A DNA stretch of 64,000 bases. Origin: Dehalococcoidia bacterium. GTDB taxonomy: Bacteria; Chloroflexota; Dehalococcoidia; Lucifugimonadales; UBA3495. A model generated the notes under the pieces. It was not told the origin of the DNA. It did no database searches and saw nothing but the letters and a program-made list of their open reading frames with translations. The stretch lies in contig DPHC01000005.1 of the NCBI GenBank assembly GCA_003523055.1, positions 152,281 to 216,280 of the forward strand, written 5' to 3'. Below, one piece after another: positions 831 through 58,600 of this stretch (position 1 is the stretch's first letter; the number at the start of each line of letters is the position of its first letter). The translations under genes were made by a program, and so were the position numbers.

Positions 831-845
831 AATTTTTTCACTTCC

Positions 846-2448: not shown

Positions 2449-2500
2449 TATAATGATCCTGTTAGTAAACGATACATTTATATAGCCTAGTATTTTTTAT

Positions 2501-2962: not shown

Positions 2963-2984
2963 TTTTACTCTCCATTATTCCTTG

Positions 2985-4745: not shown

Positions 4746-4904
4746 GACTCACCTTTACCATCCATAATCTGAACCTGATTTAAGAATAACTGTTGCCTAT
4801 AAATGAGTCAACGCTACCAAGATACGATAGAGTTGTCTATTGCTTGTAAATACACCTTCTAGCGTATAGAATCCGGAAACCTTGTAAGTATTGGAGATAA
4901 TATA

Positions 4905-6161
4905 TTGGATGCCAAAAAAACCAGTAGTTTTAATCTAAGTTCAGTATCATTATTAAGTGTTTTATCTGTAGGGCACGGTATAACACATTGGTATATGTCG
5001 GCATTTTTATATCTGATTCCATATATAAAAACATCATTGGGCCTATCATCTCTTCAAATTGAAGTATTCCATGTGTTGAGGCAGTTAAGTGGTGGAATAG
5101 TCACAATGATAGCTGGTTTCATTATTGACAGATTAAACAACAAATGGGGGTTAATACTTACTGGTTGCTTGTTTTTAGCTGCAATTATTTTTGGAGCTTT
5201 AGGAGTTTCCAAGTCTTATATATATTTATTAATACTTGCTGCGATAATGCCTTTGCCGGGGCAAATTTGGCATATACCTTCTATAGCTACAATATCCCAG
5301 AGACTTCCAGACAAAAGAGGTTTTGGTTTATCAGTGCATGGAATAGGAGCTCAAGTCGGTTCAACTGCAGGCCCGTATGTTACTGGACTAATAATAGCTT
5401 CTTCGGTGATAACGGGACTGGCATGGGAACCTTGGAGGTCTGCCACCGTAATATACGTCATTCCTACTGTTATAGCAGCTCTGATTATTTGGGCCACGTT
5501 AGGTAAATTAGGGAGTGTGGCTAATAACGGACAAGTTATTGATTTAATCACAAGAGTTAAAAATGCTAAATTTTTATTAAAAAATAAGGTCATATTAATC
5601 CTTGTTCTGGTTATATTTTTACGGAATAGTGGCTTCAATTCATTGATGGTTTGGGTTCCTCTTTATTTAGCTGGAGATTACCAAGAAAGCTTGGGCTATA
5701 GCCCAAGCTTATATGGTTTTTATTTTTCGTTATTGACTCTTTTTGGCGCTATTTCTGCTCCAGTATTAGGATGGTTATCTGATAAATATTCCCGGAAAAT
5801 AGTATTAGTCCCGAGTTTATTAATAGCGTCAGTTTTAGTCGGAACGATACCAATTATTGGAGCCGATTCAAAGTTACTGTTAGGTATAGTTTTTGCTTTA
5901 ACAGGGTTGTTTACTTACTCCCTTGGCCAATTATTACAAGCAGCTGTACTTGATCAAATAGGAACGGGCAGTGAAGGGGCGACAATGGGATTGGTTTTGG
6001 GAGCTAATAGCATTATTAGTGCAGTGTCTCCACTTATTGCAGGTCGCTTAATTGTTGCTAATTTTGGTATAAGCAATGTGTTTTATTACAACATGTCGTT
6101 ATGGCTGGCATCTGCTGTGTTATTGTTATGGGTTAAATTAAAAAATCCTAATCAGAGTTAA
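4905..6161 (+). CDS. MFS transporter
   Basis: About 12 hydrophobic helices across 418 aa. TTG start with GGAG 10 nt upstream. Confidence 0.7.
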   Translation: MDAKKTSSFNLSSVSLLSVLSVGHGITHWYMSAFLYLIPYIKTSLGLSSLQIEVFHVLRQLSGGIVTMIAGFIIDRLNNKWGLILTGCLFLAAIIFGALGVSKSYIYLLILAAIMPLPGQIWHIPSIATISQRLPDKRGFGLSVHGIGAQVGSTAGPYVTGLIIASSVITGLAWEPWRSATVIYVIPTVIAALIIWATLGKLGSVANNGQVIDLITRVKNAKFLLKNKVILILVLVIFLRNSGFNSLMVWVPLYLAGDYQESLGYSPSLYGFYFSLLTLFGAISAPVLGWLSDKYSRKIVLVPSLLIASVLVGTIPIIGADSKLLLGIVFALTGLFTYSLGQLLQAAVLDQIGTGSEGATMGLVLGANSIISAVSPLIAGRLIVANFGISNVFYYNMSLWLASAVLLLWVKLKNPNQS

Positions 6162-8647: not shown

Positions 8648-8977
8648 TTATTTTGTGTTTGTTTCTACCGGGTACTGTTCGGATAACCATTGTTTAAGTC
8701 CACCCTCTAAAATGGAGATATTGTGATATCCAGTTTTCAACAGTATAGTTGCAGCAATAGGCGAATGGTCGTTGCAACTATCGTAAATTATAATTTTTGT
8801 TTTTTTACAAGAGGTTAGTTGTTTTAGTTCCTTTGTTATTTCTGACGCTTTTATATGATATGACGACTTTATATAATTGATATTTCTGTCAATATCATCT
8901 CTAATATCTACGAGGATAAAATGTTTTGAGTTGGCTATTAGGTATGACAACCATGTTGGGGATATATTTGTGTACAT
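8648..8977 (-). CDS. Rhodanese-like domain protein
   Basis: 109 aa. FILVDIRD, an active-site-like Cys loop (IIIYDSCNDHSP) and GGLKQW. Confidence 0.6.
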   Translation of the reverse strand: MYTNISPTWLSYLIANSKHFILVDIRDDIDRNINYIKSSYHIKASEITKELKQLTSCKKTKIIIYDSCNDHSPIAATILLKTGYHNISILEGGLKQWLSEQYPVETNTK

Positions 8978-18459: not shown

Positions 18460-19677
18460 ATGTCTACAGGTATAACAGAAGTTTTAAATGGGACTATAAC
18501 CTCACCAATAGGATTTGTTGCTGGAGCAACTTATGCTGGCTTAAAGACTTTTTCTGAAGACAAACTTGATTTAGGTTTGATTGTTTCCGAAAATATTTGT
18601 GTCGCTGCAGGAGTATTTACTACAAGTTCAATACGATCACCATCTGTTGATGTTACGGCTGAACACATCAGCGACTCTTCAGCAAAGGCTATTGTTGTTA
18701 ATGCTGGAATTGCCAATGCTTGTGTGGGAGACCAAGGATTTTTGGATGCTAGAGAAATTGCACAATTGGTAGCAGGGAAAATTGACTGTGATTTCACAGA
18801 TGTTTTGGTATGTAGCACTGGCGTTATAGGCGTAGAACTTCCTATGTCTTTAGTTAGAACAGGGATATCAAAATTATCAGTAGATAAAAACTCAGGAACT
18901 GATGTAGCTAAAGCAATGATGACTACAGACACTCGAACTAAAGAAATATCAGTAGAATTTCAAATTGGCACTAAAACAGTCACAATGTCAGGAGTAGCTA
19001 AAGGATCTGGAATGATTCATCCGAACATGGCTACTATGCTCGGATTTATTACCACCGACGCAAACGTAGAAAAAGTATTTTTACAAAGAGCCTTGAGTGG
19101 AGTTGCTGATGATACATTTAATATGCTAACTGTCGACGGAGATACTAGCACAAATGACACAGTTTTGATTTTAGCTAATGGAGCTGCGGATAATAATTTA
19201 ATAGAACAAGATTCTGATAGTGCAGATATTTTCATCGAAGCATTGAAACATGTATGTACGGATTTAGTTAGAAAACTGGCTTCAGATGCTGAAGGTGCGT
19301 CCACTCTTATTACAATTGAGGTATTAGGGGCCAAAACAAAAGAAAATGCTCGAAAGGCAGCTAAAACAATTGCCTCTTCTAGCTTAGTAAAATCAGCAGT
19401 TTATGGGTCGGACCCTAATTGGGGAAGAATTTTAGCTGCCTTAGGGAGAAGTGATGTAGAACTTGTAGAAAATGCAATTGATTTATTTGTAAATGGCGTA
19501 TGTATTATGGAATCTGGAAAACCGATTCCCTTTCATAAAGATGCTGTTGTAGCGTTAATGCAGCAATCAGAAGTAATATTCAGGCTCAACTTGAATATTG
19601 GCGATGGCAATGCCGTTGCATGGGGATGCGATTTAACCGAGCAATATGTAATTATTAATAGTGCATATACTACTTAG
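18460..19677 (+). CDS. argJ: Bifunctional glutamate N-acetyltransferase / amino-acid acetyltransferase ArgJ
   Basis: KGSGMIHPNMATMLGFITTDA (autoprocessing ATML site), MLTVDGDTSTND, GSDPNWGRI, INSAYTT C-terminus. Confidence 0.92.
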   Translation: MSTGITEVLNGTITSPIGFVAGATYAGLKTFSEDKLDLGLIVSENICVAAGVFTTSSIRSPSVDVTAEHISDSSAKAIVVNAGIANACVGDQGFLDAREIAQLVAGKIDCDFTDVLVCSTGVIGVELPMSLVRTGISKLSVDKNSGTDVAKAMMTTDTRTKEISVEFQIGTKTVTMSGVAKGSGMIHPNMATMLGFITTDANVEKVFLQRALSGVADDTFNMLTVDGDTSTNDTVLILANGAADNNLIEQDSDSADIFIEALKHVCTDLVRKLASDAEGASTLITIEVLGAKTKENARKAAKTIASSSLVKSAVYGSDPNWGRILAALGRSDVELVENAIDLFVNGVCIMESGKPIPFHKDAVVALMQQSEVIFRLNLNIGDGNAVAWGCDLTEQYVIINSAYTT

Positions 19678-19707
19678 ATCATTGTAGATTTACTGAGCGT
19701 TATTAAA

Positions 19708-20517
19708 ATGGAGCCAAATGTGTCAAATATTGATTTGGTAGTAAAAATTGGAGGGAGTACATTAGGAAACCATGATACTACCATTAAAGATTTAGTTGAA
19801 TTGCAAAGTGAAGGATATAGAATAGTTGTTGTTCATGGCGGCGGAAATGTAATTTCTGACTGGATGAAAAAACAAAACTTAACACCTGTATTCATTGACG
19901 GATTAAGAGTGACTGATAGACCAAGTTTGGACATAGTAGTAGCTGTATTGACTGGCCTAATAAATAAAGAAATGGTTTCTTTATTTAATCAATTAGGAGG
20001 TAAAGCTATTGGTATTAGCGGAATTGATGGACGCATGTTAGAAGGTACCATCCCTGATCCTCAATTAGGATATGTCGGACAAGTAATTACAATAAATACT
20101 AATCCTATCAATGCAATCCTGGATTCAGGCTACATGCCTATGGTGTCTCCAGTTGGAGTTCATGTCCTTGATAATTCAAACAATTCAGGAATTCCATTAA
20201 ATATTAACGGAGATACGTCGGCAGGAGAATTAGCCAAAGCATTATCACCTGAAAGGTTGGTATTTTTGACTGATGTTCCCGGGGTAATGGATAACAGCGG
20301 TCGAGTGATCTCTAAAATGAACATGAATATCGCAAACAATTTAATCAGTTCTGGGGCGATTAAAGGAGGAATGATTCCTAAATTAGGCGCCTGTATTAAT
20401 GCACTTGAGAGTGTAAAATATGCAGATATAATTGATGGAAGAATCCCAGGTTCTTTGAGAGATTGTGTGAATGACAAAAAAAGTGGTACTAGAATTATGG
20501 GATCTAAAACTCAATGA
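19708..20517 (+). CDS. argB: Acetylglutamate kinase
   Basis: VVKIGGS, VVVHGGG, GLRVTD, NINGDTSAGELA. Confidence 0.9.
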   Translation: MEPNVSNIDLVVKIGGSTLGNHDTTIKDLVELQSEGYRIVVVHGGGNVISDWMKKQNLTPVFIDGLRVTDRPSLDIVVAVLTGLINKEMVSLFNQLGGKAIGISGIDGRMLEGTIPDPQLGYVGQVITINTNPINAILDSGYMPMVSPVGVHVLDNSNNSGIPLNINGDTSAGELAKALSPERLVFLTDVPGVMDNSGRVISKMNMNIANNLISSGAIKGGMIPKLGACINALESVKYADIIDGRIPGSLRDCVNDKKSGTRIMGSKTQ

Positions 20518-20593
20518 TTTCATTTTTCATTTCAACTTTTTTATGATAGGTTTACATATCTGGATTACAATAAAAAATGCTTTGTGAGGTTCT

Positions 20594-21781
20594 ATGAATA
20601 GTGCTGACTGGATAGCTATAGAAAATAAATATTATGCTCAGACTGTGAGGCGACAACCTGTTGTTATTGAAAAAGGCATCGGGTCTAGAGTTTGGGATGC
20701 AGATGGAAAAGAATACTTGGATTTTGTTGCAGGTTGGGCTGTTGATAACTTAGGCCATTCTAATCCAATCATAACTGAAGCAATTAAAAAGCAAGCAGAA
20801 ACACTGCTTCAAACTTCGAACCAATTTTATACTATACCTCAATTGAAACTAGCTGAATTGTTGATAGAGAACAGTGCTTTAGATAAAGTATTTTTCAGCA
20901 ATAGTGGGGCCGAAGCTAATGAAGGAGCAATCAAATTGGCTAGGCGCTATGGAATGATTAATAGAGACGGTGCTTATGAAATCATTACTGCTTTAAACTC
21001 GTTTCATGGGCGAACTCTTGGTACTGTAGCTGCCACTGGGCAACCGCATTATCAAGCGAATTTTGCTCCATTATTACCTGGATTCGTGCATGTTGAATAT
21101 AATGATTTCGAAGCTATTAAATCTGCTACTACTTCTAAGACAGCTGCTGTCATGTTAGAACCTATTCAAGGTGAAGGAGGAGTTATTATTCCAAGCAATG
21201 ATTACCTTCCTAAAATCAGACAGTGGTGCACTGATAATAACTTGTTGTTGATATTGGATGAAGTTCAAACAGGAATTGGAAGATTAGGTAGTTTGTTTGG
21301 GTATCAAGAATATGGGATAGAACCAGATGTGATGACTTTAGCAAAGGGATTAGGATTTGGACTTCCTATAGGGGCATTTTTGTCTAAAGAATATTGCATG
21401 GCTTTGGTACCTGGGGACCATGGTTCAACTTTTGGAGGAAATGCACTTACAACTGCAGTAGCTTTTGAAGGAACTAAGCATGTTATTGAAAATGGCATTT
21501 TAGAAAATGTAAAAGACATGGAAAGCTATTTCATGGGAGCTTTAAATAACCTTAAAGAAAAATATGGCTTTATTAATGAAATAAGAGGAAAAGGATTATT
21601 GATTGCTATGGAATTTGATAAAGATATATCTGGAGAGGTGATAACTGCTTGTAATGAGGCGGGATTATTGCTTAACGCACCAAGACCTAATGCTATTAGA
21701 TTTATGCCAGCCTTAAATATAGGTACGCCAGAAATCGATGAATGCATTAACAAATTAGAAATTGTATTAAGTAATATTTAA
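20594..21781 (+). CDS. argD: Acetylornithine aminotransferase (class III)
   Basis: FSNSGAEANEGAIKLAR, DEVQTGIGRLG, TLAKGLG (PLP-Lys). Sits in the arg cluster. Confidence 0.85.
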   Translation: MNSADWIAIENKYYAQTVRRQPVVIEKGIGSRVWDADGKEYLDFVAGWAVDNLGHSNPIITEAIKKQAETLLQTSNQFYTIPQLKLAELLIENSALDKVFFSNSGAEANEGAIKLARRYGMINRDGAYEIITALNSFHGRTLGTVAATGQPHYQANFAPLLPGFVHVEYNDFEAIKSATTSKTAAVMLEPIQGEGGVIIPSNDYLPKIRQWCTDNNLLLILDEVQTGIGRLGSLFGYQEYGIEPDVMTLAKGLGFGLPIGAFLSKEYCMALVPGDHGSTFGGNALTTAVAFEGTKHVIENGILENVKDMESYFMGALNNLKEKYGFINEIRGKGLLIAMEFDKDISGEVITACNEAGLLLNAPRPNAIRFMPALNIGTPEIDECINKLEIVLSNI

Positions 21782-21797
21782 TAATGAATTTGAGTAA

Positions 21798-22982
21798 ATG
21801 ATGAAGAAAAAAATAGTTTTAGCATACAGTGGTGGCCTTGACACTTCAGTTGCAGTTCCATGGTTGAAAGAAAATTATGACGCTGAAGTAATTACAGTAA
21901 CAATTGATTTGGGAATGGTTGATTTAGCATTAATCAAGAAACGTGCTATTGATGTAGGAGCTGATAAAGCAGTAACTATAGATGCTAAACAGATGCTAGT
22001 AGATGAATTTTTGTGGCCAGCTCTTAAAGCTGGAGCTATATATGAAGAAGAGTATCCTCTGGCTACTGCATTAGGCCGACCTCTGATAGCAAGATGTTTG
22101 GTAGATGTTGCTAAAGAAGAAGGCGCTTATGCGATTGCTCATGGATGTACAGGAAAAGGAAATGATCAAGTTCGCATAGAAGTGAACGCTGCTTCATTAT
22201 TTCCTGAAGTAGAACTTATTGCCCCGATAAGAGAATGGGGAATGAGTAGAGCTGATGAAGTAGAATATGCTAATGAGAGGAATTTACCGATAAACATCAA
22301 AGATAGTAGATTTTCAGTAGATGAAAATCTATGGGGAAGGAGTGCTGAAGCGGGAGAACTTGAAGATCCTTGGTCTGAACCTCCTGAAGAAGCTTATACA
22401 TGGACTTCTTCAAGCATGGATGCTCCTGATGAAAAAAAATATATTGAAATAGATTTCGACAAAGGAATTCCTGTAAGGATAGATGGCACGCAAATTCCTA
22501 GTATAGAATTGATTGTTAAATTGAACGAGATAGCCGGTAAGTACGGTATAGGCCGAATAGATCATGTTGAAAATAGGCTAGTTGGTATTAAATCTAGAGA
22601 AATATATGAGTCACCAGCTGGTGTGTTGTTGCATATTGCGCATAAAGCACTGGAAGATTTGACGTTAAGCAAAGATCAAGCACGTTTTAAAGCTAGTATA
22701 TCTAAAGAGTATGCAGAAATTGTTTACAATGGGTTGTGGTTTGGTAGGCATAGATTAGACTTAGACAAGTATGTTGAAAGCTCTCAAGCTTATGTGACTG
22801 GAACAGTTAGAATGCTATTGTATAAAGGTAACTGCAGAGTAGTAGGCCGGAAATCCAATTATGGATTGTATTCTAAGAACTTAGCAACTTATGACAGAGA
22901 TGATTCATTTGATCACTCGGCTGCTGAGGGATTTATAAAAATTTATGGGCTCTCCCAGAGAACAGAAAACTTAATTAGATAG
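21798..22982 (+). CDS. argG: Argininosuccinate synthase
   Basis: AYSGGLDTS, HGCTGKGNDQVR, ENRLVGIKSREIYE. Confidence 0.93.
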   Translation: MMKKKIVLAYSGGLDTSVAVPWLKENYDAEVITVTIDLGMVDLALIKKRAIDVGADKAVTIDAKQMLVDEFLWPALKAGAIYEEEYPLATALGRPLIARCLVDVAKEEGAYAIAHGCTGKGNDQVRIEVNAASLFPEVELIAPIREWGMSRADEVEYANERNLPINIKDSRFSVDENLWGRSAEAGELEDPWSEPPEEAYTWTSSSMDAPDEKKYIEIDFDKGIPVRIDGTQIPSIELIVKLNEIAGKYGIGRIDHVENRLVGIKSREIYESPAGVLLHIAHKALEDLTLSKDQARFKASISKEYAEIVYNGLWFGRHRLDLDKYVESSQAYVTGTVRMLLYKGNCRVVGRKSNYGLYSKNLATYDRDDSFDHSAAEGFIKIYGLSQRTENLIR

Positions 22983-33882: not shown

Positions 33883-35343
33883 ATGACGAGCCCAAAAAGT
33901 ATTTCAAGACATTCTACTGATTTAGATACAGAATATAAATGGGGATTCACCATGGACGTAGAAGGTGATGTCGCTCCCAAAGGTTTAAGTGAAGAGATTG
34001 TTAGGTTTATATCATCGAAAAAGAATGAACCTGAGTGGCTACTTGAATGGAGATTACAAGCATTTAAATTTTGGGAAAGTCAAATAGATGTACACCCGGA
34101 ATGGGCTAATGTTAGTTTTCCCAAGATCGATTTTCAAGATTTGCATTATTATGCAGATCCGACTGCTAAAAAAGATGGACCGAAAAGCTTAGATGAAGTG
34201 GACCCTGAAATAATCGAAGGTTTTAATAAATTAGGAATACCGATCGAAGAACAAAAGCAATTGGCTGGAGTAGCAATAGATGCTGTATTAGACAGTGTCT
34301 CTGTAGCTACTACTTACCAAGATATGTTGGAAAAAGAAGGCATAATATTTTGCTCGATTAGTGAAGCTGTCCAAAAGCATCCAGATTTAGTAAAAAAATA
34401 CTTGGGTTCTGTGGTTCCATATTCTGACAATTATTACGCTTGTTTGAATGCAGCTGTATTCAGTGATGGATCATTTGCATATATCCCTAAAGGTACAAGA
34501 TGCCCGATAGAATTAATGACATATTTTAGAATAAACCAGATAAATAGCGGGCAATTTGAAAGAACATTGATTGTAGCAGAAGATGATAGTTATGTTAGTT
34601 ACTTGGAAGGATGCACAGCTCCAGTAAGAAAAGAATCTCAACTGCATGCAGCGGTCGTAGAATTAGTCGCAATGGACAATGCTGAAATCAAATATTCAAC
34701 TTTACAAAATTGGTATCCGGGCGATAAAAATGGCCAAGGAGGAATATATAATTTTGTGACAAAGAGAGGAAAAGCAGTAGGTGTAAATTCGAAAATTTCA
34801 TGGACTCAAGTAGAAACAGGTTCTGCTATAACATGGAAATATCCTAGTGTTATTTTGCAAGGAGATAATTCCATAGGAGAATTTTATTCTGTGGCATTGG
34901 TTAATAATTACCAACAAGCAGATACTGGAACCAAGATGATTCATATTGGTAAAAACACTAAGAGCACTATTATTGCTAAAGGTATTTCGGCAGGCCATGC
35001 TGAAAATACTTATAGAGGATTAGTAAAAATAAACCCATCTGCTACCGGAGCAAAGAATTTTACTCAATGTGATTCATTGCTTGTTGGAGATACGTGCGGA
35101 GCACACACAGTTCCTTATATTGAGGTTAAAAATCCAACGGCTCAATTAGAACATGAAGCAACTACTTCTAAAGTGAGCGATGATCAGTTGTTCTATTGCC
35201 AGCAACGAGGTATTGGCCAAGAAGAAGCTCACTATATGATTATTAACGGGTTTTGCAGAGGAATATTCCAAGAATTGCCGTTCGAATTCGCAATGGAAGC
35301 TTCACAATTACTAAAGGTTAGTTTAGAGGGGACAGTAGGATAA
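33883..35343 (+). CDS. sufB: Fe-S cluster assembly protein SufB
   Basis: [46 protein letters not shown]. Confidence 0.95.
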
Positions 35344-35349
35344 ATATAC

Positions 35350-36090
35350 ATGATTGAAGTTAAAGATTTAAAAGCTAATATTGAAGAAAAAGAAATATTA
35401 AAAGGGATTAATTTAATTATAAATCCAGGAGAAGTGCATGCTATTATGGGGCCTAATGGCTCAGGTAAAAGCACATTAGCTAACGTGATAGCTGGCCGTC
35501 CTGAATACACTGTAACAAGCGGGTCTGTACAATTTGAACAGCAAGAGCTTTTAGCATTAGAACCTGAAGATCGCGCTCGTGCAGGAGTTTTTCTAGCTTT
35601 CCAGTACCCTACAGAATTACCAGGAGTTAGAGCTTGGCAGTTCTTAAAAGCTGCCGTTGATGCAATCAGAGTGCACAATGGTGACCCTGAATATACCGCA
35701 AGAGAGTTTGATCTGAGATTAAAAGAATGTGTTTCAGAAGTGTCTATTGATCCAGAATTGGTTAAAAGAAATGTCAATGAAGGATTTTCTGGAGGTGAGA
35801 AAAAACGAAACGAAATACTCCAAATGACGCTATTAAATCCCAAACTAGCTATTTTAGATGAAACTGATTCTGGGTTAGACATAGATGCTCTTAAAATTGT
35901 TGCTGATGGGGTAAACAATTTTAGAAATGAAAATAACGCGGTACTAGTTGTAACTCACTATCAAAGACTATTGAATTATATAGTTCCCGATAAAGTACAT
36001 GTGCTGTTTGATGGAAGAATAGTTCAATCTGGTGGTCCTGAGCTTGCGTTGGAATTAGAGGCTAAAGGATATGATTGGGTTAAAAATTAA
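35350..36090 (+). CDS. sufC: Fe-S cluster assembly ATPase SufC
   Basis: GPNGSGKSTL, FSGGEKKRNEILQ, AILDETDSGLD. Confidence 0.95.
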   Translation: MIEVKDLKANIEEKEILKGINLIINPGEVHAIMGPNGSGKSTLANVIAGRPEYTVTSGSVQFEQQELLALEPEDRARAGVFLAFQYPTELPGVRAWQFLKAAVDAIRVHNGDPEYTAREFDLRLKECVSEVSIDPELVKRNVNEGFSGGEKKRNEILQMTLLNPKLAILDETDSGLDIDALKIVADGVNNFRNENNAVLVVTHYQRLLNYIVPDKVHVLFDGRIVQSGGPELALELEAKGYDWVKN

Positions 36091-36133
36091 AATGGAACTT
36101 GTTCTAAAAGTGTCGTTTTAGGATGTGTAGATT

Positions 36134-37444
36134 GTGAGTGAAATGGATTTGAAATATGAATGTTATGAAAAAGACTATGAACTGATAGTCCAAAATTCAG
36201 CGGGAATTGCTAATAAAATCAGGAGTAATGCTTGGAAAGCTTTTGTTGAATCTGGTATGCCGGTAGCTAGGAAGGGGAATGAAAAATGGAAATATACCAA
36301 TGTTAATTCCATCTTGGAAAAAACTTTCCGTAAAAATGCTAAACAGCTAAGCTCTAAGATATCTGCCGAAAGTATTCCATGCGGAAGTACATCGCATATA
36401 AAGATTGTTTTATTGGATGGACACTTATCAGAAGATTTATCTTCAAACATGAAGGCGTTTGACGGGATCACTATTACCACTATACAGGAAGGTTTGGACG
36501 TAGGTAATGAAAATAAACATTTCGCAAAACATTCATCATTAAAAGATGGTTTTGTTTCGTTGAATACTGCCTTGTTTAATGAAGGGATTAGCGTGGAAGT
36601 AGAACCTAAAACCGAGCCAATCACCTTGGAATTATTACATTTTACTACAGGGAGTAAGGGAGTCGCTAATTATCCAAGATTATTAGTTAATCTAAAAGAA
36701 AATTCTAATCTGACGTTAATAGAAGGATTTTTCAGTAATAATGATGGAGAACATTTTACTGATGCAGTTACTGAAATAGTATTAGATCCTGGTTCTAGAA
36801 TGGTTCATGCAAGAGTAATGCTTGAAAATTTAGATTCTGTTCATATGGGAACTACAAATGTTTATCAATCTTCTGACAGCGAATTTAAATCTGCATCTTT
36901 TTCTAAAGGCTCTAAGCTAGCTAGAAATGAAATGTCAGTTTTATTAGATGGTCCTGGTTCATCCTGTGATCTTTCAGGACTATATTTGACTGTGGACGAT
37001 CAACATGTGGATAATCTTATCAATATTGATCATGCTAAACCTAACTGTACAAGTAATATTAAGTACAAAGGAATATTAGATGGAAATTCAAGAGCCATCT
37101 TTGGCGGAGAAGTAATTGTTAGGAAAGATGCCCAGAAAACAAATGCTCTTCAGTCTGACAAAAACTTGGTTTTGTCCAATGGTGCTGAAATTGATAGTAA
37201 GCCAAGCTTATGGATTTATGCTGATGATGTTCAATGTGGCCATGGGGCTACTGCGGGTAGTATAAATGGAGATACAGTTTTTTATATGAAAAGCAGAGGA
37301 TTAGATGAACGTACGGCGAGTCGCTTTTTAATCCATGCATTCGCACGTGAAATTATTGAAACAATAGATGATCCAGATTTCATGCAATACTTAGATGATA
37401 TGTATGAATCATCTATCCCGGACGTAACCCTTAATTTGGCGTAA
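36134..37444 (+). CDS. sufD: Fe-S cluster assembly protein SufD
   Basis: Operon position between sufC and sufS. SufB/D beta-helix C-terminus (IYADDVQCGHGAT...FYMKSRGL). GTG start, or ATG at 36143. Confidence 0.85.
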   Translation: MSEMDLKYECYEKDYELIVQNSAGIANKIRSNAWKAFVESGMPVARKGNEKWKYTNVNSILEKTFRKNAKQLSSKISAESIPCGSTSHIKIVLLDGHLSEDLSSNMKAFDGITITTIQEGLDVGNENKHFAKHSSLKDGFVSLNTALFNEGISVEVEPKTEPITLELLHFTTGSKGVANYPRLLVNLKENSNLTLIEGFFSNNDGEHFTDAVTEIVLDPGSRMVHARVMLENLDSVHMGTTNVYQSSDSEFKSASFSKGSKLARNEMSVLLDGPGSSCDLSGLYLTVDDQHVDNLINIDHAKPNCTSNIKYKGILDGNSRAIFGGEVIVRKDAQKTNALQSDKNLVLSNGAEIDSKPSLWIYADDVQCGHGATAGSINGDTVFYMKSRGLDERTASRFLIHAFAREIIETIDDPDFMQYLDDMYESSIPDVTLNLA

Positions 37445-37446
37445 AT

Positions 37447-38691
37447 ATGATGAATGACGTAGAAAAAGTTGGAAAAAAGTTGGTTAGTGATATCCGGCAA
37501 GATTTTCCAATATTACAAGAAATGGTTAATGGCCATAGATTAGTTTATTTAGATAATGGAGCTACTACTCAGAAACCTATTTCCGTTATTGATGCTATTT
37601 CTGAATATTACAGGCAATACAACTCAAATATTCATAGAGGTGTCCATACTCTAAGCCAATTAGCTACAGACCGTTACGAACTTGCCAGAAACAAAGTTAA
37701 GAACTTCATCAATGCTCAAAATGATGAGGAAATTATATTTGTGCGAGGAACCACAGAAGGAATTAACTTGGTGGCACAAAGTTATGCTAGAAACCGATTA
37801 AAGAAAGGTGATGAAGTAATCATTTCGACAATGGAACATCATTCTAATATTGTTCCTTGGCAAATGGTATGTGAACAAACTCAATCTATACTAAAAATCA
37901 TACCAATAGATGAGAATGGAGTTTTGTTAATGGATGACTATGAAGCTTTATTATCTGATAAGACGAAAATAGTTTCTATTGTCCATCAATCTAATACATT
38001 AGGAACAATTAATCCAGTTAAGCAGATTACTAAGCTAGCACATGACGCTGGCGCTATAGTATTAGTGGATGGAGCTCAATCAGCTCCTCATTTGAGCATT
38101 GATGTTCAAGATATAGACTGTGATTTTTTTGCGTTTTCGGGACATAAAGTATGTGGACCCACTGGAGTGGGAATTTTGTATGGCAAACAAGATATATTAG
38201 AAGAAATGCCTCCTTATCAAGGAGGTGGAGACATGATTAGAAGTGTTTCTTTTGAGAAAACAACATACAATGATTTGCCATATAAATTTGAAGCTGGAAC
38301 TCCTAACATCGCAGGAGGTATTGGATTAGGAGTAGCTATAGATTATTTAACTAATCTTGGAATGGAAAATATTGCTCTCCATGAAAAGAATATTTTGAGT
38401 TATGCTAAAGAAAATCTCAGAAACATGTCCGGAATTAGAATAATAGGTGATGCTGAAGAATACGGGGGAGTAGTATCATTCGTGATGGATGCAGCTCATC
38501 CACATGATATCGGAACAATATTGGACTCTGAAGGCGTGGCGATAAGAACAGGCCATCATTGTACTCAGCCGTTAATGGACCGATTTGATATACCTGCTAC
38601 AGCACGAGCATCTATTTCATTTTATAATACCAAAGATGATGTTGATAGATTTTTGGTGGCTGTCGACAGAGTCTCAGAGCTATTTGGCTGA
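37447..38691 (+). CDS. sufS: Cysteine desulfurase SufS (group II)
   Basis: YLDNGATTQKP, NIHRGVH, FSGHKVCGPTG (PLP-Lys), RTGHHCTQPL (catalytic Cys). Confidence 0.93.
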   Translation: MMNDVEKVGKKLVSDIRQDFPILQEMVNGHRLVYLDNGATTQKPISVIDAISEYYRQYNSNIHRGVHTLSQLATDRYELARNKVKNFINAQNDEEIIFVRGTTEGINLVAQSYARNRLKKGDEVIISTMEHHSNIVPWQMVCEQTQSILKIIPIDENGVLLMDDYEALLSDKTKIVSIVHQSNTLGTINPVKQITKLAHDAGAIVLVDGAQSAPHLSIDVQDIDCDFFAFSGHKVCGPTGVGILYGKQDILEEMPPYQGGGDMIRSVSFEKTTYNDLPYKFEAGTPNIAGGIGLGVAIDYLTNLGMENIALHEKNILSYAKENLRNMSGIRIIGDAEEYGGVVSFVMDAAHPHDIGTILDSEGVAIRTGHHCTQPLMDRFDIPATARASISFYNTKDDVDRFLVAVDRVSELFG

Positions 38692-38724
38692 CGAGTAGAC
38701 TTATAGGAGGATGGTTTTACATAA

Positions 38725-39174
38725 ATGCCGGGATTAAGCGATTTATATCAAGAAATATTATTAGAACACAATTCAAAACCAAAGAATTTTTTTGTAGTAG
38801 AAGGTCATACTCACCATAAAGAAGGGTTTAATCCTTTGTGCGGAGATAGGATTCAATTATATGTGACCCTGAAAAATGATTTAATCACTGAAGTAGGGTT
38901 CCAAGGTTCAGGATGTGCTATATCAAGAGCATCTACCTCAATGATGACAGAAAGCGTGAAAGGTAAATCGTTAGAGCAAATCAATATAATTTTTGAAGAA
39001 GTTCGTAAAATGCTTACAGAACCAGGTAGTGATTTGGACGCAGATATATTAGGGGATCTGGAAATGTTATCCGGAGTTACTGAATACCCAGTTAGGATAA
39101 AATGTGCCATATTATCATGGCATACTCTGAAGTCATTAATTGATAATTCTGCTGACCAGGTGTCTACGGAATAG
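38725..39174 (+). CDS. sufU: SufU (SUF-type NifU/IscU-like sulfurtransferase/scaffold)
   Basis: NPLCGD, GSGCAISRAS, VRIKCA: the three Cys ligands plus Asp in SufU spacing. Confidence 0.85.
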   Translation: MPGLSDLYQEILLEHNSKPKNFFVVEGHTHHKEGFNPLCGDRIQLYVTLKNDLITEVGFQGSGCAISRASTSMMTESVKGKSLEQINIIFEEVRKMLTEPGSDLDADILGDLEMLSGVTEYPVRIKCAILSWHTLKSLIDNSADQVSTE

Positions 39175-39183
39175 GACAAACTC

Positions 39184-39642
39184 ATGGATGAATTACGGGA
39201 TAATTTTCTTGAAAATATTTATAAAGACACGATTATGGACCATTACCGTAATCCACGGCATTCTGAATTATTAGAAAGATATGATTTTGCACAAGAGGAA
39301 CTTAATCCATTTTGTGGTGATAAAATTTTATTACAACTTAAGCTTAATGATAGCGCCATAATACAAGATATTTGCGCTAAAGCCGAAGGATGTACAGTAA
39401 TTAAAGCTTCAGCTTCCCTCATGAGTATGTTTTTAACCAATTTGCATATGAATGAAATAAATGACCGAATTGAAAAATTCCATTTATTTTTAAAGAACGA
39501 ACTTCCAAATGACAAACGATATCTCATAGGATGCTTGGCCGAGTTATCAGTTGTTATTGATCATCCAGTAAGACTGAAATGCGTGTTGTTACCCTTCAGA
39601 TCATTAGAAAAAATACTCAAGCAATATAAAACTACAGTTTAA
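39184..39642 (+). CDS. Second, divergent SufU/IscU-like paralogue
   Basis: NPFCGD, AEGCTVIKASAS, VRLKCV: the same ligand pattern as the upstream SufU in an otherwise diverged sequence. Confidence 0.65.
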   Translation: MDELRDNFLENIYKDTIMDHYRNPRHSELLERYDFAQEELNPFCGDKILLQLKLNDSAIIQDICAKAEGCTVIKASASLMSMFLTNLHMNEINDRIEKFHLFLKNELPNDKRYLIGCLAELSVVIDHPVRLKCVLLPFRSLEKILKQYKTTV

Positions 39643-46521: not shown

Positions 46522-46651
46522 AACCCAATACATGTTAATACATGTGTAGTAACACTCAAGTAACACAAATATATGATAATAACTTAGTGGGATTATATAT
46601 ATGCTCGTTATCGGGCAAAAAAAATCAAATCTAAACAAGGAGAAACGCTAT

Positions 46652-49132
46652 ATGGCAAAGAAAATTGGTTTCAAACTATCTTTACCTATAATGACCGCAG
46701 TCGTTATAGGCGTGTTGGCTTTAATGGTCAGCATGGGAATGTTCTCTGGCCAAAAAGTTGTAGCTAACGATATAGCACCTGAATTAGATGGAGTTAGAAC
46801 TGGAGGCAGCCCATTGGCAGCCCCAGCAGCGGCACAAACTATGTCCGCTGGTGGAACATCTTCAGTAACGATTACTCCACCTGAAGTTGGTGCAACCGCA
46901 AAAATCGTTATAAGCACTGGTACAGGAACAACCGCCATACTTGAAGGTGATATTATCACCCTCAGAATGGAAAGCGTTTTTGGAGTACCTACTTCGATAG
47001 CAACATCTGATATTATTATGACATCTTCCACAGTGTCAAACGTATCTGGTGCCGCTAACGTAAGAGTTAACCCTAAAAACGTTACTGTGGAATTCACAGG
47101 GCAAAAACTAAACACCGCATTGATACACCTAGAGGTTCCAGACATGGACCCAACGACAGCTGGTTCTGGTGGTTCAATGATGTCAGGTTCACAGGGCATA
47201 GGAACTGCCTCGACTCTCGCGATTACGATCGGACAGTCTGCAGGTATTACTAACCCTACTGAAGCTGACTCTCCTACCGTAGGAGTATCCGCTAACTTAG
47301 CATCAGGCGCTGAGTATGCTGGCATAATAACTACAGCCGGTACATCACTCCCACGAAAACTAACCTCAAGTACTACTGGTACTTCTAGAGGCGGTTCAGT
47401 GACTGTTACTGGTTATGGTTTCAAAAATTCAACAACAGCTACCGTCTGGTTGGACAGTAACAACAACAAGACCAGAGACGCTGGTGAAGTTGACTTAGCT
47501 GAAGCAGTTGTCGCATCTGATGACACCTTCTCAGCTACATTCAGCTTAGCTGTACCACCATTTTCTGTCAGCGCTACCAACTATGTCAGCGCAATTGACG
47601 GAAAAGGTTCAGTAACTAACGCTAACATTACTATAAGTGTGTCTGATAAAATTATTATCAGCCCTACTACAGCAGCAGTTGGCGAAACAATCCAAATTAC
47701 CATGCAAGATTTCCCTGCAAGCCACTATGTAGTTTCAGGTGCAAATGGAGCAGTTAAATTTGGTTCAGTTAGTGCAACTGTTCAAAGCAACACAATCATT
47801 CAAGTAGGCGCTGATGGAAGTGCTGTATTTGACGTAACTATTCCAAACGCAGCAAGAACTGGTACGCAAGCAGTATATGTATATGCTGACGCAAACCAGG
47901 ACTCTACTATTTCGGGAGCAAGTGCATCAGCTAATATAACTATTACTGGAGCAACTTTGACCGCAACACCTAACGCAATAGTTCCTAACCAAACTGTTAA
48001 CTTACAAGGATCAGGCTGGACAGATGGTGGCTCTGCTACTATTAACGCAGCTTCTGATACTTCAGTAATTAGTTTGGGTGGTTCAACAACTGGTTTAAGA
48101 GCAACTGGAGCAGCAGCTATCAGTGCAATTAACGCCGGTAATGGATCAATCACCGTAGATAACGGCGGAAACTGGAGTGGCCCTGTGGTTATTCCAATGA
48201 CAGCTGGATCTATGAATGGTGGAACTCAAATATTAGAAGTAACTGACAACGGTGGACGAACTGGTAATGCTGAATTGACAATCGCTTCTAGAGCATTGGC
48301 TATTAGCCCAGCTTCCAGCGGGTTAGGTACTACTATTACAGTAGACGGTACTGGTTACCCAGCAGAGAACTCCTCAACTGGAGCTGCTACTGCACCAACA
48401 GTAACTATGACCTATTACTATGGTTCATCCTCTAAGAATGTGGCTACATTCACCCCAGACGGAACAGGAGCATTTAGTGGAACATTTACAGTACCTTTGG
48501 ATGCACCAATTCCATCTGATAACTTAGTAAAATCTGCATTTAGCTATACACCATCCGGTGGAGCAGCTACTACAGTTACTAATACTGTTTCCCATTCAGT
48601 ACCAACCGCTAGCTTGAGCACTTCAGCTTCTGCAGGCGCAGCTGGTACTAAATTAACCATCACTGGCTCTGGATTTAAGGCTTACTCAACTGTAACTACT
48701 TTGACAGTAGGTGGAGTTGATGCACGACCTGCTCCAGTACCGGCAACAAATGGAAACGGCGAATTAACCACTGAGATCATGGTTCCTTCACTTGCTGTAG
48801 GTTCACATGCAATCAGTATTACTATCGCTAGTACTACCGCAAGCGCTAACTTCTCAGTAACTTCCACTGGAATTTCTGCTGCAGCAAGTGACGCTATAGG
48901 TGATGCTATCGGTACACCTGTCGGAGACAACCTCGTTAGAGTGTTCGCATTCGACAACGCTACTAAGGACTGGTCATTCTATGACCCATCCCCAGATTTG
49001 GCAGACGCTAATACTTTGGCCAACGTTGCAGCTGGTTCTGTATATTGGATAAAGACATTGGAAGACGCTACAGTAGCATTAAATGGAACTGACCGAGCAT
49101 TGTATGCCGGTTGGAACCTGGTATCTTATTAA
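46652..49132 (+). CDS. Large Cys-free, Thr/Ser/Ala/Gly-rich envelope protein with repeated Ig-like (IPT/TIG-type) modules; candidate S-layer or adhesin protein
   Basis: ORF track starts at 46601; the ATG at 46652 with a GGAG RBS is the more likely start. N-terminal KK + LPIMTAVVIGVLALMVSMGMF signal/anchor. Recurrent strand motif VTVTGYGF, IQITMQDF, VNLQGSGW, ITVDGTGY, LTITGSGF. No Cys in the translation. Distinct C-terminal about 70 aa (VFAFDNATKDWSFYDP...GSVYWIK...YAGWNLVSY). Confidence 0.75.
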   Translation: MAKKIGFKLSLPIMTAVVIGVLALMVSMGMFSGQKVVANDIAPELDGVRTGGSPLAAPAAAQTMSAGGTSSVTITPPEVGATAKIVISTGTGTTAILEGDIITLRMESVFGVPTSIATSDIIMTSSTVSNVSGAANVRVNPKNVTVEFTGQKLNTALIHLEVPDMDPTTAGSGGSMMSGSQGIGTASTLAITIGQSAGITNPTEADSPTVGVSANLASGAEYAGIITTAGTSLPRKLTSSTTGTSRGGSVTVTGYGFKNSTTATVWLDSNNNKTRDAGEVDLAEAVVASDDTFSATFSLAVPPFSVSATNYVSAIDGKGSVTNANITISVSDKIIISPTTAAVGETIQITMQDFPASHYVVSGANGAVKFGSVSATVQSNTIIQVGADGSAVFDVTIPNAARTGTQAVYVYADANQDSTISGASASANITITGATLTATPNAIVPNQTVNLQGSGWTDGGSATINAASDTSVISLGGSTTGLRATGAAAISAINAGNGSITVDNGGNWSGPVVIPMTAGSMNGGTQILEVTDNGGRTGNAELTIASRALAISPASSGLGTTITVDGTGYPAENSSTGAATAPTVTMTYYYGSSSKNVATFTPDGTGAFSGTFTVPLDAPIPSDNLVKSAFSYTPSGGAATTVTNTVSHSVPTASLSTSASAGAAGTKLTITGSGFKAYSTVTTLTVGGVDARPAPVPATNGNGELTTEIMVPSLAVGSHAISITIASTTASANFSVTSTGISAAASDAIGDAIGTPVGDNLVRVFAFDNATKDWSFYDPSPDLADANTLANVAAGSVYWIKTLEDATVALNGTDRALYAGWNLVSY

Positions 49133-49149
49133 AGTAAGGCTAGGACATG

Positions 49150-49186
49150 TTTGTGCAGAAAATAAACAACAGAAATTTTCTGCACA
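49150..49186 (+). terminator. 13-bp perfect hairpin downstream of the large surface-protein gene
   Basis: TTGTGCAGAAAAT (49150-49162) pairs with ATTTTCTGCACAA (49174-49186), with an 11-nt loop. No T-tract follows, so terminator function is uncertain. Confidence 0.45.
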
Positions 49187-49214
49187 AGTGTGCCTCTAAA
49201 ATTAGGAGGAATAG

Positions 49215-49832
49215 ATGAAAAAATTTAAAATCCTGGCCCTATTAGCTGTAATGGCGATTCTCTGGACGATCCCAGCAATGGCGTTCGCTCAAGAGGTTCC
49301 GCCTGCAGTGGTAATTGGAACAGCATCTAACAATGGAGTACCAGTCGCGGCTGGCACTACTATAACTGCTCACGTAAGTGGGTCAGATGTTGGATCTGCA
49401 AAAACCTCAGCTGGTGGCAAATTCCAAGTCACGGCTAAAGGGGTCAAAGGCGATACACTAACTTTTACAATTGGTGAAGCAACAGCTTCTGAATCTATAA
49501 AATTAGCTGATAATGGAGAAGTCTTGAGACAAGATCTTTCTGTTGGAGCTGGTAGTAGCGGGGCCGATGGATCCGCAGGTTCAAAAGGAGCTACAGGAGC
49601 TACAGGAGCTAAGGGAGATTCCGGAGCTAAAGGAGACACTGGCGCTGCCGGTGCTGCTGGAGCCGCTGGACCTTCTGGTGCTGCTGGTGCTGCTGGACCT
49701 GCTGGAGCCGCTGGTGCTAATGGTGCCGACGGAACTAGTGGTGGTGGAAGCATGGGTATAATTGCTTTGATACTCGCTATCGTAGCAATAGTTGTAGCCG
49801 GCGCTGGATTCTTCATGAGAAAACAGAGCTAA
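49215..49832 (+). CDS. Membrane-anchored collagen-like repeat protein (signal peptide, beta-rich head, Gly-X-Y stalk, C-terminal TM)
   Basis: MKKFKILALLAVMAILWTIPAMAFAQE signal. About 21 uninterrupted G-X-Y triplets (GSSGADGSAGSKGATGATGAKGDSGAKGDTGAAGAAGAAGPSGAAGAAGPAGAAGANGADGTS). IIALILAIVAIVVAGAGFFM TM followed by RKQS. GGAGG RBS. Confidence 0.8.
   Translation: MKKFKILALLAVMAILWTIPAMAFAQEVPPAVVIGTASNNGVPVAAGTTITAHVSGSDVGSAKTSAGGKFQVTAKGVKGDTLTFTIGEATASESIKLADNGEVLRQDLSVGAGSSGADGSAGSKGATGATGAKGDSGAKGDTGAAGAAGAAGPSGAAGAAGPAGAAGANGADGTSGGGSMGIIALILAIVAIVVAGAGFFMRKQS
49551..49748 (+). repeat. Collagen-like Gly-X-Y coding repeat tract, including a 27-nt tandem duplication
   Basis: Strict 9-nt/3-codon periodicity. 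49650-49676 and 49677-49703 are identical at 24 of 27 positions (my count). GGAGCTACA is repeated at about 49587-49610. Confidence 0.8.
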
Positions 49833-49854
49833 TCTACCGAAATCACCAAGCAAG

Positions 49855-49889
49855 ATAGGGGCTTCCGATACGGAGGCCCCTATTTTTTT
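49855..49889 (+). terminator. Rho-independent terminator
   Basis: 13-bp stem ATAGGGGCTTCCG / CGGAGGCCCCTAT (one G-U pair), ATA triloop, then a run of 7 T (49883-49889). Confidence 0.8.
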
Positions 49890-49946
49890 GTGTTGCGCAA
49901 GAGGCTGATCTGATACAATTTGATTAGGATGGGCAGGAGGACGGGA

Positions 49947-50732
49947 ATGAATAAATTGTTGAAACACTTCGCGGTTGCTGGTGTTGTGTGTGTATTTATT
50001 ATGACGTCTCCCAATGTGAAGGCTGATGAACCGGGTACTGTAGTAATTAACTCAACTTTGTTCGAAAGTGCAACCGTAACTATTGATCCCGTTGAGGTAT
50101 TCCCTGGGGCCAAAGTAATGATAACTGGGACTAATTTTCCGAGCGACAGTCCGGTGAGCCAAGGGCATGTTTCATACCGGTATGGAGAATCTCAAACTCA
50201 ATGCGAAGTCCTCGGAGGATATGAAGTTGGGATAGATAAAGGGTTTGTATTTGAGTTCCAAATCCCTTTACAAGCAGGGATTGGCGAACAGGAATATGTT
50301 TATTTAAATAGAGGGTGCGTGAAACCGGTTACAGATTATGTTCGTATACTTGTTTCAGCCTATGAAATACCCCAAGCCAACGTACAAATTGATGATAATG
50401 TAAACAAACTAGAACCTACCGTAGTTCATGAACAATCTACAGATCCAGCGGTCACGATGTGGCAGCAAGGAGTAACTGGAAGGATTGGGCCCAAAGGTGA
50501 TCAAGGAATAACTGGACCAAAAGGTGAAACTGGCCAGAAAGGTGATACCGGCGAGAAAGGTAATATTGGTCTTAAAGGGGATATAGGACCGAAAGGTGAT
50601 ATTGGCCAGATTGGAGAAACAGGGCCACAAGGAGTTGTAGGACCAGCAATCGGGAGCACGATTGCTCTCATTCTGTCCATTGTGGCGCTAGTAGTAGCCA
50701 TAAGTGGATTGATATCGAAAAGATGGATGTGA
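49947..50732 (+). CDS. Second membrane-anchored collagen-like repeat protein with an IPT/TIG-like head
   Basis: ORF track starts at 49920; the ATG at 49947 preceded by GGAGGA is the more likely start. Signal MNKLLKHFAVAGVVCVFIMTSPNVKA. Head contains VTIDPVEVFPGAKVMITGTNF. About 20 G-X-Y triplets (GVTGRIGPKGDQGITGPKGETGQKGDTGEKGNIGLKGDIGPKGDIGQIGETGPQGVVGPA). TM STIALILSIVALVVAISGLI followed by SKRWM. Confidence 0.8.
   Translation: MNKLLKHFAVAGVVCVFIMTSPNVKADEPGTVVINSTLFESATVTIDPVEVFPGAKVMITGTNFPSDSPVSQGHVSYRYGESQTQCEVLGGYEVGIDKGFVFEFQIPLQAGIGEQEYVYLNRGCVKPVTDYVRILVSAYEIPQANVQIDDNVNKLEPTVVHEQSTDPAVTMWQQGVTGRIGPKGDQGITGPKGETGQKGDTGEKGNIGLKGDIGPKGDIGQIGETGPQGVVGPAIGSTIALILSIVALVVAISGLISKRWM
50469..50648 (+). 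repeat. Collagen-like Gly-X-Y coding repeat tract
   Basis: Uninterrupted G-X-Y periodicity with Lys/Asp/Glu/Pro in the X and Y positions. Confidence 0.8.
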
Positions 50733-50738
50733 ACTAGG

Positions 50739-51317
50739 ATGAAGGGTAAGCTAAAAATAACTGTATTTTGTACTCTTGGTTTGGTTTTATTGTGTATTTC
50801 AGCTGGCCCTAAACAAGAATCAGTCCCCCCTCAACCCTTTTATGCAGATTTCTATACTGGAACAGTAAGAGTGCAGGGAACCATACCCGAATTACCGATA
50901 GTTCTTTACGCTTGTGTTGTAAGTTGTGACCGAGAAGGCTTTAAAAGCCGTACCATCGCAGTAGGTCCTGATGGGACCTACGATAATTTACACGTTGATC
51001 CGTCAAATAAAAAATATTTGTATCAAATAGTGACATTTTATTTAGAAACCCCATTTGGAAATATAATGGCAAATGAACATGCAATTATGGAAGGAGCATT
51101 CAGCCGTAATAGGTTGGACTTAACATTTTCTGACCCGGTACCAGTATTTGTGCCTGTAGTTATCCCAGATGAGATAATAGTTCCTGAAACAGAACTACCG
51201 AGTGTCGGAGGACCGATGAATTTTATCAAGTATGTTAAATTCATCGGTTTTATAGGCGTCACTTTATGTTTATTAGGATTAGTGTTCGGGGTTAAAAGTA
51301 CACGATACAGATGTTAA
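50739..51317 (+). CDS. C-terminally anchored envelope protein with an LPSVG motif before the TM segment
   Basis: Signal-like MKGKLKITVFCTLGLVLLCISAG. Beta-rich head (PFYADFYTGTVRVQGT...). Pro/Val-rich linker (PVPVFVPVVIPDEIIVPETE). LPSVGG (51195-51212), then TM FIGFIGVTLCLLGLVFGV and a basic KSTRYRC tail. Starts 6 nt after the previous stop. Confidence 0.65.
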   Translation: MKGKLKITVFCTLGLVLLCISAGPKQESVPPQPFYADFYTGTVRVQGTIPELPIVLYACVVSCDREGFKSRTIAVGPDGTYDNLHVDPSNKKYLYQIVTFYLETPFGNIMANEHAIMEGAFSRNRLDLTFSDPVPVFVPVVIPDEIIVPETELPSVGGPMNFIKYVKFIGFIGVTLCLLGLVFGVKSTRYRC

Positions 51318-58190: not shown

Positions 58191-58225
58191 TTGACTTATT
58201 CACGGTTTACGGTAGAATAAGTCAA
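58191..58225 (+). promoter_or_regulatory. 11-bp perfect hairpin after aroC that also contains a promoter-like TTGACT-16-TAGAAT
   Basis: TTGACTTATTC (58191-58201) pairs with GAATAAGTCAA (58215-58225). TTGACT 58191-58196 and TAGAAT 58213-58218 are separated by a 16-nt spacer. Confidence 0.4.
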
Positions 58226-58254
58226 AACTCCTATATTAAAAGAAGGTGAGTAAA

Positions 58255-58533
58255 ATGGAAGGTAAAGTACAGTTAGAAATAACATATTGTGTTCCTTGAC
58301 AACATCACGCAACTGCCACGTGGATGGCAAATGAATTTTTCAGAGCATATGGACCTGATGCGGCAATAACAATCTCTCCAAGAGGACAAGGTATTATGGA
58401 AGTCTTCTTAGATGGTGAGAAAATATTCGATAAAAAAGCTGAAGATAACCAATATCCTGATTTAGCTAGAGTTCGAAAAATGAAAGAAGTAATTGCAGCA
58501 AAATTGGAATCCATACCTGCAGCTGCTGACTAA
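58255..58533 (+). CDS. SelW/Rdx-like selenoprotein (in-frame TGA at 58297-58299 read as selenocysteine; C-x-x-U motif)
   Basis: ATG 58255 lies 5 nt after AGGTGA. It is in frame with the listed ORF 58324..58533, and TGA 58297-58299 is the only interruption. Translation: MEGKVQLEITYCVP-U-QHHATATWMANEFFRAYGPDAAITISPRGQGIMEVFLDGEKIFDKK...YPDLARV, which matches the Rdx-family layout (beta1, CxxC/U, helix, ...FEV..DGE.I..K). selB is in the same window. Confidence 0.8.
58314..58329 (+). promoter_or_regulatory. Candidate bacterial SECIS hairpin core
   Basis: TGCCA (58314-58318) pairs with TGGCA (58325-58329). The loop CGTGGA contains GU. The hairpin begins 15 nt after the TGA. Confidence 0.4.
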
Positions 58534-58556: not shown

Positions 58557-58600
58557 AATAAAGTAGAGCCACTCTTTTATAAGAGTGGCTCTACTTTATT
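58557..58600. terminator. Bidirectional terminator hairpin between the selenoprotein gene and tmk
   Basis: 20-bp perfect stem AATAAAGTAGAGCCACTCTT / AAGAGTGGCTCTACTTTATT with loop TTAT. The tmk stop codon lies in the loop and the last tmk codons form the 3' arm. A/T-rich flanks on both sides. Confidence 0.65.

Follow-up and report, generated by a model that had tools for sequence, protein, structure and literature searches.

A 5′-truncated SelW-like gene of Dehalococcoidia in which an in-frame UGA is very probably read as selenocysteine

SelW-like selenoproteins of bacteria that carry a CxxU motif were described in 2005, and no other selenoproteins described from marine prokaryotes are as abundant. 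The GOS data set contained 427 SelW-like genes, which were enriched in marine samples (PMC2398784), and a 2026 review describes the SelW-like family (PF10262, CxxU) as "predicted with high confidence" (PMC13188914). Our literature search returned no paper mentioning SAR202 together with selenoproteins. The gene analysed here has in common with the prokaryotic SelW-like group the Pfam family (PF10262, formerly PF05169), an N-terminal CxxU, a length of about 90 residues, a SECIS position right after the UGA and a marine origin. It shows nothing that is different in kind; it represents a lineage-specific orthologous group in SAR202/Dehalococcoidia, and its candidate SECIS, with a stem of 5 bp, is among the smallest that the model allows and competes with another fold.

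The Cys-type Rdx structures 2oka, 2obk, 2fa8, 2ojl, 2p0g and 3dex, all of them structural-genomics targets, have the same fold (TM 0.78–0.88, rmsd 1.4–2.4 Å) and align over residues 2–75 with their CxxC in register; they are 20–29% identical and have Cys in the place of Sec. Mouse SelW (2npb) likewise has the Rdx fold (TM 0.82) and the same CxxU position at 16% identity. The decoding is where the eukaryotic protein differs: eukaryotic SelW depends on a 3′-UTR SECIS and eEFSec, whereas the gene described here would depend on an in-frame hairpin and SelB. The bSECIS model for such bacterial hairpins comprises an apical loop of 3–9 nt, an upper stem of 4–16 bp, a G in the first two loop positions, a distance of 16–37 nt from the UGA to the loop, and a minimum free energy of −7.5 kcal/mol or lower (PMC13188914, Figure 2A).

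The window, by which we mean the whole stretch of 64,000 nucleotides (64 kb) that was analysed, comes from a Dehalococcoidia bacterium. We conclude that positions 58255–58533 of its forward strand are very probably a real selenoprotein gene, in which the UGA at codon 15 is read as selenocysteine and which annotation has truncated at the 5′ end. The full SelW-like (Rdx family) coding sequence has 92 codons, including Sec15, followed by TAA. Its coordinates were read directly from the sequence: ATG at 58255–58257, TGA at 58297–58299, an internal ATG at 58324–58326 and TAA at 58531–58533. The Shine-Dalgarno (SD) sequence AGGTGA, also read directly, lies at 58244–58249 on the same strand, 5 nt 5′ of ATG 58255. 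With the TGA translated as U, the protein reads MEGKVQLEITYCVP-U-QHHATATWMANEFF... and its N-terminus is MEGKVQLEITYCVPUQHHATATWMANEFF..., in which the C-V-P-U redox motif corresponds to 58288–58299 on the forward strand (Cys12 is TGT at 58288–58290 and Sec15 is the TGA). The first-pass annotation had claimed that the gene begins at Met 58324 in the ORF list, that AGGTGA precedes an ATG at 58255 in the same frame, and that TGA 58297–58299 is the sole interruption between the two ATGs; each of these statements was verified, and the listed ORF comprises 69 aa. It had also called the gene unannotated. Public entries do exist, some of them named Rdx, but the active-site end is missing from them, so "5′-truncated" fits better.

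Upstream of the SD, a promoter-like TTGACT-16 nt-TAGAAT element at 58191–58218 (forward strand) was picked up by a consensus scan with 10/12 matches, a score that is weak alone; it would fit a separate transcript containing ATG 58255. Downstream, the SelW-like gene and tmk run towards each other, and between their stops, at 58557–58600, lies an inverted repeat with perfect 20-nt arms and a loop of 4 nt. The tmk stop codon falls in the loop, and the repeat is likely to serve as a bidirectional terminator.

In one sequence, such an arrangement could be a product of chance (single-sequence hairpin z = 0.18). The orthologue scan, which covered one genome per species, yielded 229 relatives. We retained the best 80 loci, all of them from Dehalococcoidia, Chloroflexota or SAR202 MAGs; together with the window they make up 81 sequences. 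All 80 loci (the best 80 of 229) have the same ATG and a TGA at codon 15, and all 80 are colinear with the window gene from codon 1. An SD of the GGAGG type (GGAG, GAGG or AGGA, 4–16 nt upstream) precedes the first ATG in 80 of the 81 sequences, the exception being the window itself with its AGGTGA. Because start codon, SD, reading frame and TGA are all retained throughout these loci, chance was dismissed. A six-frame read-through scan of the 64-kb window found no TGA-interrupted gene besides the SelW-like gene. In some marine bacteria the rhodanese-related sulfurtransferases form a selenoprotein family; the window carries a rhodanese-like ORF on the reverse strand (8648–8977, 109 aa) with Cys in the expected active-site loop and no in-frame TGA.

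The protein belongs to the Rdx family and has Sec at a Cys position of the CxxC motif. When U was written as C, the full-length translation matched Pfam Rdx (PF10262) with 50.6 bits (E = 2.3e-13; gathering cut-off 22.6 bits), residues 7–72 falling on positions 2–67 of the 74-position profile. The 69-aa ORF alone reached 22.9 bits, barely past the cut-off, indicating that more than half of the family signal lies in the part removed by annotation. Against NCBIfam TIGR02174 (CXXU_selWTH), residues 7–73 scored 34.0 bits, with a cut-off of 34.2; the same residues scored 37.8 bits against NF041051 (SelTWH_Campy), with a cut-off of 88, and the protein is not a member of that Campylobacter-type equivalog. 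Neither curated NCBIfam cut-off was reached, which helps to explain why annotation pipelines miss the selenoprotein status of the gene.

Six solved Rdx structures matched the protein by sequence (E from 7e-8 to 1e-4). In the four alignments that were inspected (2oka, 2obk, 2fa8 and 2ojl), ITYCVP[U]Q was aligned to ITYCtqCQ or an equivalent, so that the CxxC is in register with C-V-P-U and Sec occupies the place of the second Cys. Ninety-nine relatives were found among 1.8 billion cluster representatives; in most of the full-length ones the Sec column is Cys, and the Cys-type consensus YCVPCGY (25 cluster representatives) is in register with C-V-P-U. The prediction that the U would align with the second Cys of CxxC was therefore borne out by the Rdx structures and by the Cys-type relatives alike. 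A few relatives among the cluster representatives have W at the Sec column, and these are probably further TGA codons translated under genetic code 4.

The strand–CxxU–helix layout, which had been proposed from the letters as typical of Rdx, agrees with both the Pfam match and a fold model of an orthologue. For modelling, the orthologue P0005 (88–90% identical, with W at the Sec position) stood in for the window protein. Its AlphaFold (AF2) model had a pLDDT of 89.5 and contained strand 1, the CxxU, helix 1, strands 2–4 and helix 2; an earlier model made from a shallow alignment (pLDDT 60.5) was excluded from the fold search. The top 22 Foldseek matches of the P0005 model were all Rdx/SelW-family proteins, including mouse SelW, with target-normalised TM scores of 0.75–0.88, and thioredoxins came next.

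The codons around and after the UGA are constrained at the RNA level. In codons 14–25 (58294–58329, forward strand) synonymous variation is suppressed, with a relative synonymous entropy of 0.17–0.19, compared with 0.67 in codons 2–13 and 0.70 in codons 30–60; it is at least 0.51 in all 49 ten-codon windows outside codons 14–29. This collapse of synonymous variation indicates an RNA-level constraint that overlaps the coding sequence where a SECIS is expected. The candidate bacterial SECIS, which we call hairpin A, spans 58314–58329 on the forward strand, with a stem formed by 58314–58318 and 58325–58329 and a loop CGUGGA at 58319–58324, and it contains the internal ATG 58324. RNAalifold returned hairpin A as one conserved hairpin in each alignment window that was tried, and it is paired in 100% of the 81 sequences. 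Its sole variation is a compensatory change from C-G to U-A that is common to the window and its three closest relatives, so the covariation amounts to a single event in four related sequences.

In the window, hairpin A has a stem of 5 bp and a loop of 6 nt whose second base is G and whose third is U, and the loop lies 19 nt from the UGA, a geometry that fits the bSECIS model. The hairpin is weak in the window, at −6.4 kcal/mol (−6.1 kcal/mol in the comparison with hairpin B), which is above the −7.5 criterion. In 79 of the 80 relatives the region reaches −7.5 kcal/mol or lower, mostly via the competing hairpin B that is described below. Folding of single sequences 3′ of the UGA was not better than that of shuffled sequences (z = 0.18 to 2.48), so the argument for a SECIS is made from comparative data only. 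The loop G is the third base of Thr22, which is ACG in 80/80 loci, whereas the other Thr codons of the gene prefer ACC. A 2026 study reports that in Sec-hydrogenases of Chloroflexota, too, the loop G is supplied by the third position of an ACG codon (PMC13582414). Neither a lower SECIS stem including the UGA nor a larger conserved structure was found, as only the 5-bp hairpin recurred across window sizes, and the free variation of codons 26–28 disfavours a lower stem. An Rfam scan of the window gave no matches except two tRNAs.

Hairpin B occupies 58308–58329 (alignment columns 12–33) and is mutually exclusive with hairpin A. It has 9 bp with one bulged A and closes on a CAC triloop with no loop G. 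In 78 of the 80 relatives, which are richer in GC, it is the more stable of the two (median −10.2 kcal/mol, versus −7.4 kcal/mol for hairpin A), and it is 98.7% paired across the sequences. In the window it is broken at two pairs and, at −4.2 kcal/mol, is less stable than hairpin A; pair 15–30 of hairpin B is broken in five further sequences. Covariation cannot choose between the two hairpins because the region is too invariant. Hairpin A is favoured because it is the sole one that is intact in every sequence and the sole one with the required loop G, and from these comparisons we infer that hairpin A, rather than hairpin B, would be the one that binds SelB.

One alternative assigns another role to this region. 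Instead of a plain SECIS, the conserved hairpins would chiefly form a regulatory switch or attenuator, in which the two exclusive structures set the balance between termination, which yields a 14-residue peptide, and Sec insertion; we regard this as unlikely. Both competing structures are maintained at about 99–100%, the fold with the lower energy in most relatives has no loop G, and the suppression of synonymous variation reaches 5′ of hairpin A into the arm that belongs to hairpin B only, up to the codon before the UGA. In addition, hairpin A and the T-rich tract behind it were flagged in a scan for terminators, but this tract consists of conserved Phe-Phe codons. The breakage of hairpin B at two pairs in the window, where it is the less stable fold, and the loss of pair 15–30 in five further sequences also argue against a switch that depends on both structures. 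The sequence context around Sec-UGA is constrained in ordinary selenoprotein genes too. Moreover, a switch would add to an explanation by Sec decoding and would not replace it.

Under the preferred reading, in which the UGA is decoded as Sec, translation would begin at ATG 58255 behind its own SD, and SelB would deliver Sec-tRNA(Sec) at UGA 58297. SelB would be tethered by the small SECIS hairpin at 58314–58329, which starts 14 nt past the UGA and would expose G-U in its six-base loop. The product would adopt a thioredoxin-like fold with Cys12 and Sec15 between strand 1 and helix 1. These two residues probably cycle between a reduced thiol/selenol and a selenenylsulfide, so that the protein would act as a small thiol-dependent oxidoreductase. 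We infer the insertion of selenium at UGA 58297 from the comparative sequence evidence.

Of the machinery that this mechanism would require, selB is present in the genome. As the first-pass annotation had pointed out, a selB gene lies in the window; it was confirmed as an N-terminal fragment of 276 codons on the reverse strand (1–830), cut by the left window edge. The fragment scored 284.6 bits on the TIGR00475 equivalog (cut-off 242.25). The ENA contig L001, which is 99.96% identical to window positions 1–4944, carries the complete selB (631 aa) with the SelB beta-barrel and winged-helix domains. Past the left window edge, a gene for a NurA-domain nuclease (L001 6007–7215) adjoins selB; because this neighbour is neither selA nor selD, the Sec machinery is not clustered at the selB locus. 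ARAGORN found no tRNA-Sec in the 64-kb window, in L001 or in 60 related loci. Crude regex motif scans of the window, L001 and about 1 Mb of related loci did not find selA or selD, which does not equal absence. The genes for SelA, SelD and tRNA-Sec need not be linked to the SelW-like gene.

These negative scans are also what could be cited for a reading in which the UGA is read through but not as Sec: a near-cognate or suppressor tRNA would insert Trp or Cys there, or the codon would be reassigned. Some database entries (P0002–P0008) do give codon 15 as W, but these are best explained as gene-calling artefacts of code 4. Of the 53 long ORFs in the window, 11 terminate in TGA, indicating that the standard code and not code 4 is in use; genetic code 4 was ruled out by this stop-codon usage, and no reassignment is available to account for codon 15. 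A Trp at position 15 would destroy the CxxC/U motif, and a Cys meaning predicts TGT or TGC in some of the 80 species, whereas all of them have TGA. The genome has an intact selB, which is not known to have any role except Sec delivery. The RNA-level constraint at the SECIS position points the same way. We therefore consider a non-Sec read-through very improbable.

The substitution pattern on either side of the UGA shows that the reading frame is translated through it. Across the 80 loci the N-terminus is MEGKVQ[L/I/V]EITYCVPUQH[H/L]ATATW and otherwise invariant. Relative to the consensus codon, codons 2–14 of the 81 sequences show 294 synonymous and 37 nonsynonymous differences, and all 37 of the latter are L/I/V exchanges at codon 7. 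In codons 16–23, which separate the TGA from the internal ATG, 33 synonymous and 5 nonsynonymous differences were counted, so that the 5′ extension totals 327 synonymous versus 42 nonsynonymous; downstream of Met24 the counts are 1294 and 385, respectively. The 5′ extension is thus conserved at the amino-acid level amid abundant synonymous change, as the selenoprotein proposal had predicted. Nucleotide identity, averaged over sequence pairs, is low upstream of the SD (0.30) and high in codons 1–14 (0.86) and 15–25 (0.97); conservation begins at the SD. An SD before the internal ATG was found in 0 of the 81 sequences, and no orthologue that starts at the internal Met with its own ribosome-binding site was seen. 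The coding-type substitutions, the conservation boundary and the lack of an internal SD together indicate that one frame is translated on both sides of the UGA.

Although gene callers and most database entries use ATG 58324, and the 69-aa ORF that it opens just reaches the Pfam Rdx cut-off, it is extremely unlikely that this ORF is the real gene, with the 69 nt upstream an untranslated leader whose likeness to the Rdx N-terminus is a relic, given that this ATG has no SD in any of the 81 sequences and sits within a conserved hairpin, that the codons upstream of it bear a signature of translation, and that the resulting stump would lack strand 1 and the entire family-defining redox motif.

Selection on the SelW-like protein appears to be unusually strong. 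The flanking DNA is about 71–72% identical to the nearest species representatives, in which the first 84 residues of the SelW-like protein are 100% identical. About 55–60 of the 80 loci preserve the gene order tmk, R3H-domain ATPase, pdxT, pdxS downstream. Median amino-acid identity to the window protein across these loci (L002–L081) was 89% for the SelW-like protein (first 84 residues), 85% for PdxS, 72% for AroC, 60% for PdxT, 57% for the R3H-domain ATPase and 35% for Tmk, making the SelW-like protein the most conserved among the neighbouring genes compared. Farther away in the window, four secreted or surface-anchored proteins are encoded at 46601–51317 with a G+C content of 0.40–0.43, compared with about 0.35 elsewhere; one is an 843-aa protein rich in Ala, Thr, Ser and Gly, and two have collagen-like G-x-y repeats and C-terminal membrane anchors. 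Two further regions (18460–22982 and 33883–39642) hold an arginine biosynthesis cluster (argJ, argB, argD and argG) and a complete suf Fe-S assembly operon (sufB, sufC, sufD, sufS and a SufU/IscU-like gene), as identified from translations only.

The public entries for the orthologous group are almost all stumps of 69–73 aa, in line with the earlier remark that gene callers would truncate the gene. They are named "hypothetical protein", "Rdx family protein" or "predicted Rdx family selenoprotein". A few entries, including P0002–P0008, are of the code-4 style with W at the Sec position. Entry P0001 has R at this position along with several other odd substitutions, and P0009 begins with MCIRDS, which looks like a translated remnant of a Nextera adaptor.

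The family to which this gene belongs has long been known, and neither a new mechanism nor a new family is involved; the additions are modest: database entries systematically lack the 5′ end of the gene, and its conservation in SAR202 is extreme. In at least 80 species-level Dehalococcoidia/SAR202 genomes, gene calls strip the 23 N-terminal residues together with the whole active site, and some put Trp at the UGA. Surveys of selenium use that are built on predicted proteins will miss the gene because of this N-terminal removal or Trp translation. Part of the long-known marine SelW-like metagenomic signal can now be assigned to SAR202, an ecologically important clade.

More speculatively, and with a low probability in our estimation, the element after the UGA could be bistable, with the G-loop SECIS of hairpin A set against the more stable hairpin B without a loop G, tuning Sec insertion versus termination, for example by selenium supply or temperature; in this reading the protein may be a core, possibly essential, redox component of an abundant deep-ocean clade and not an accessory antioxidant. 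A core redox role is suggested by the conservation of the SelW-like protein across 80 species, which exceeds that of PdxS. Because it is very small and extremely conserved, the gene is useful for asking what bacterial SelW-like proteins do.
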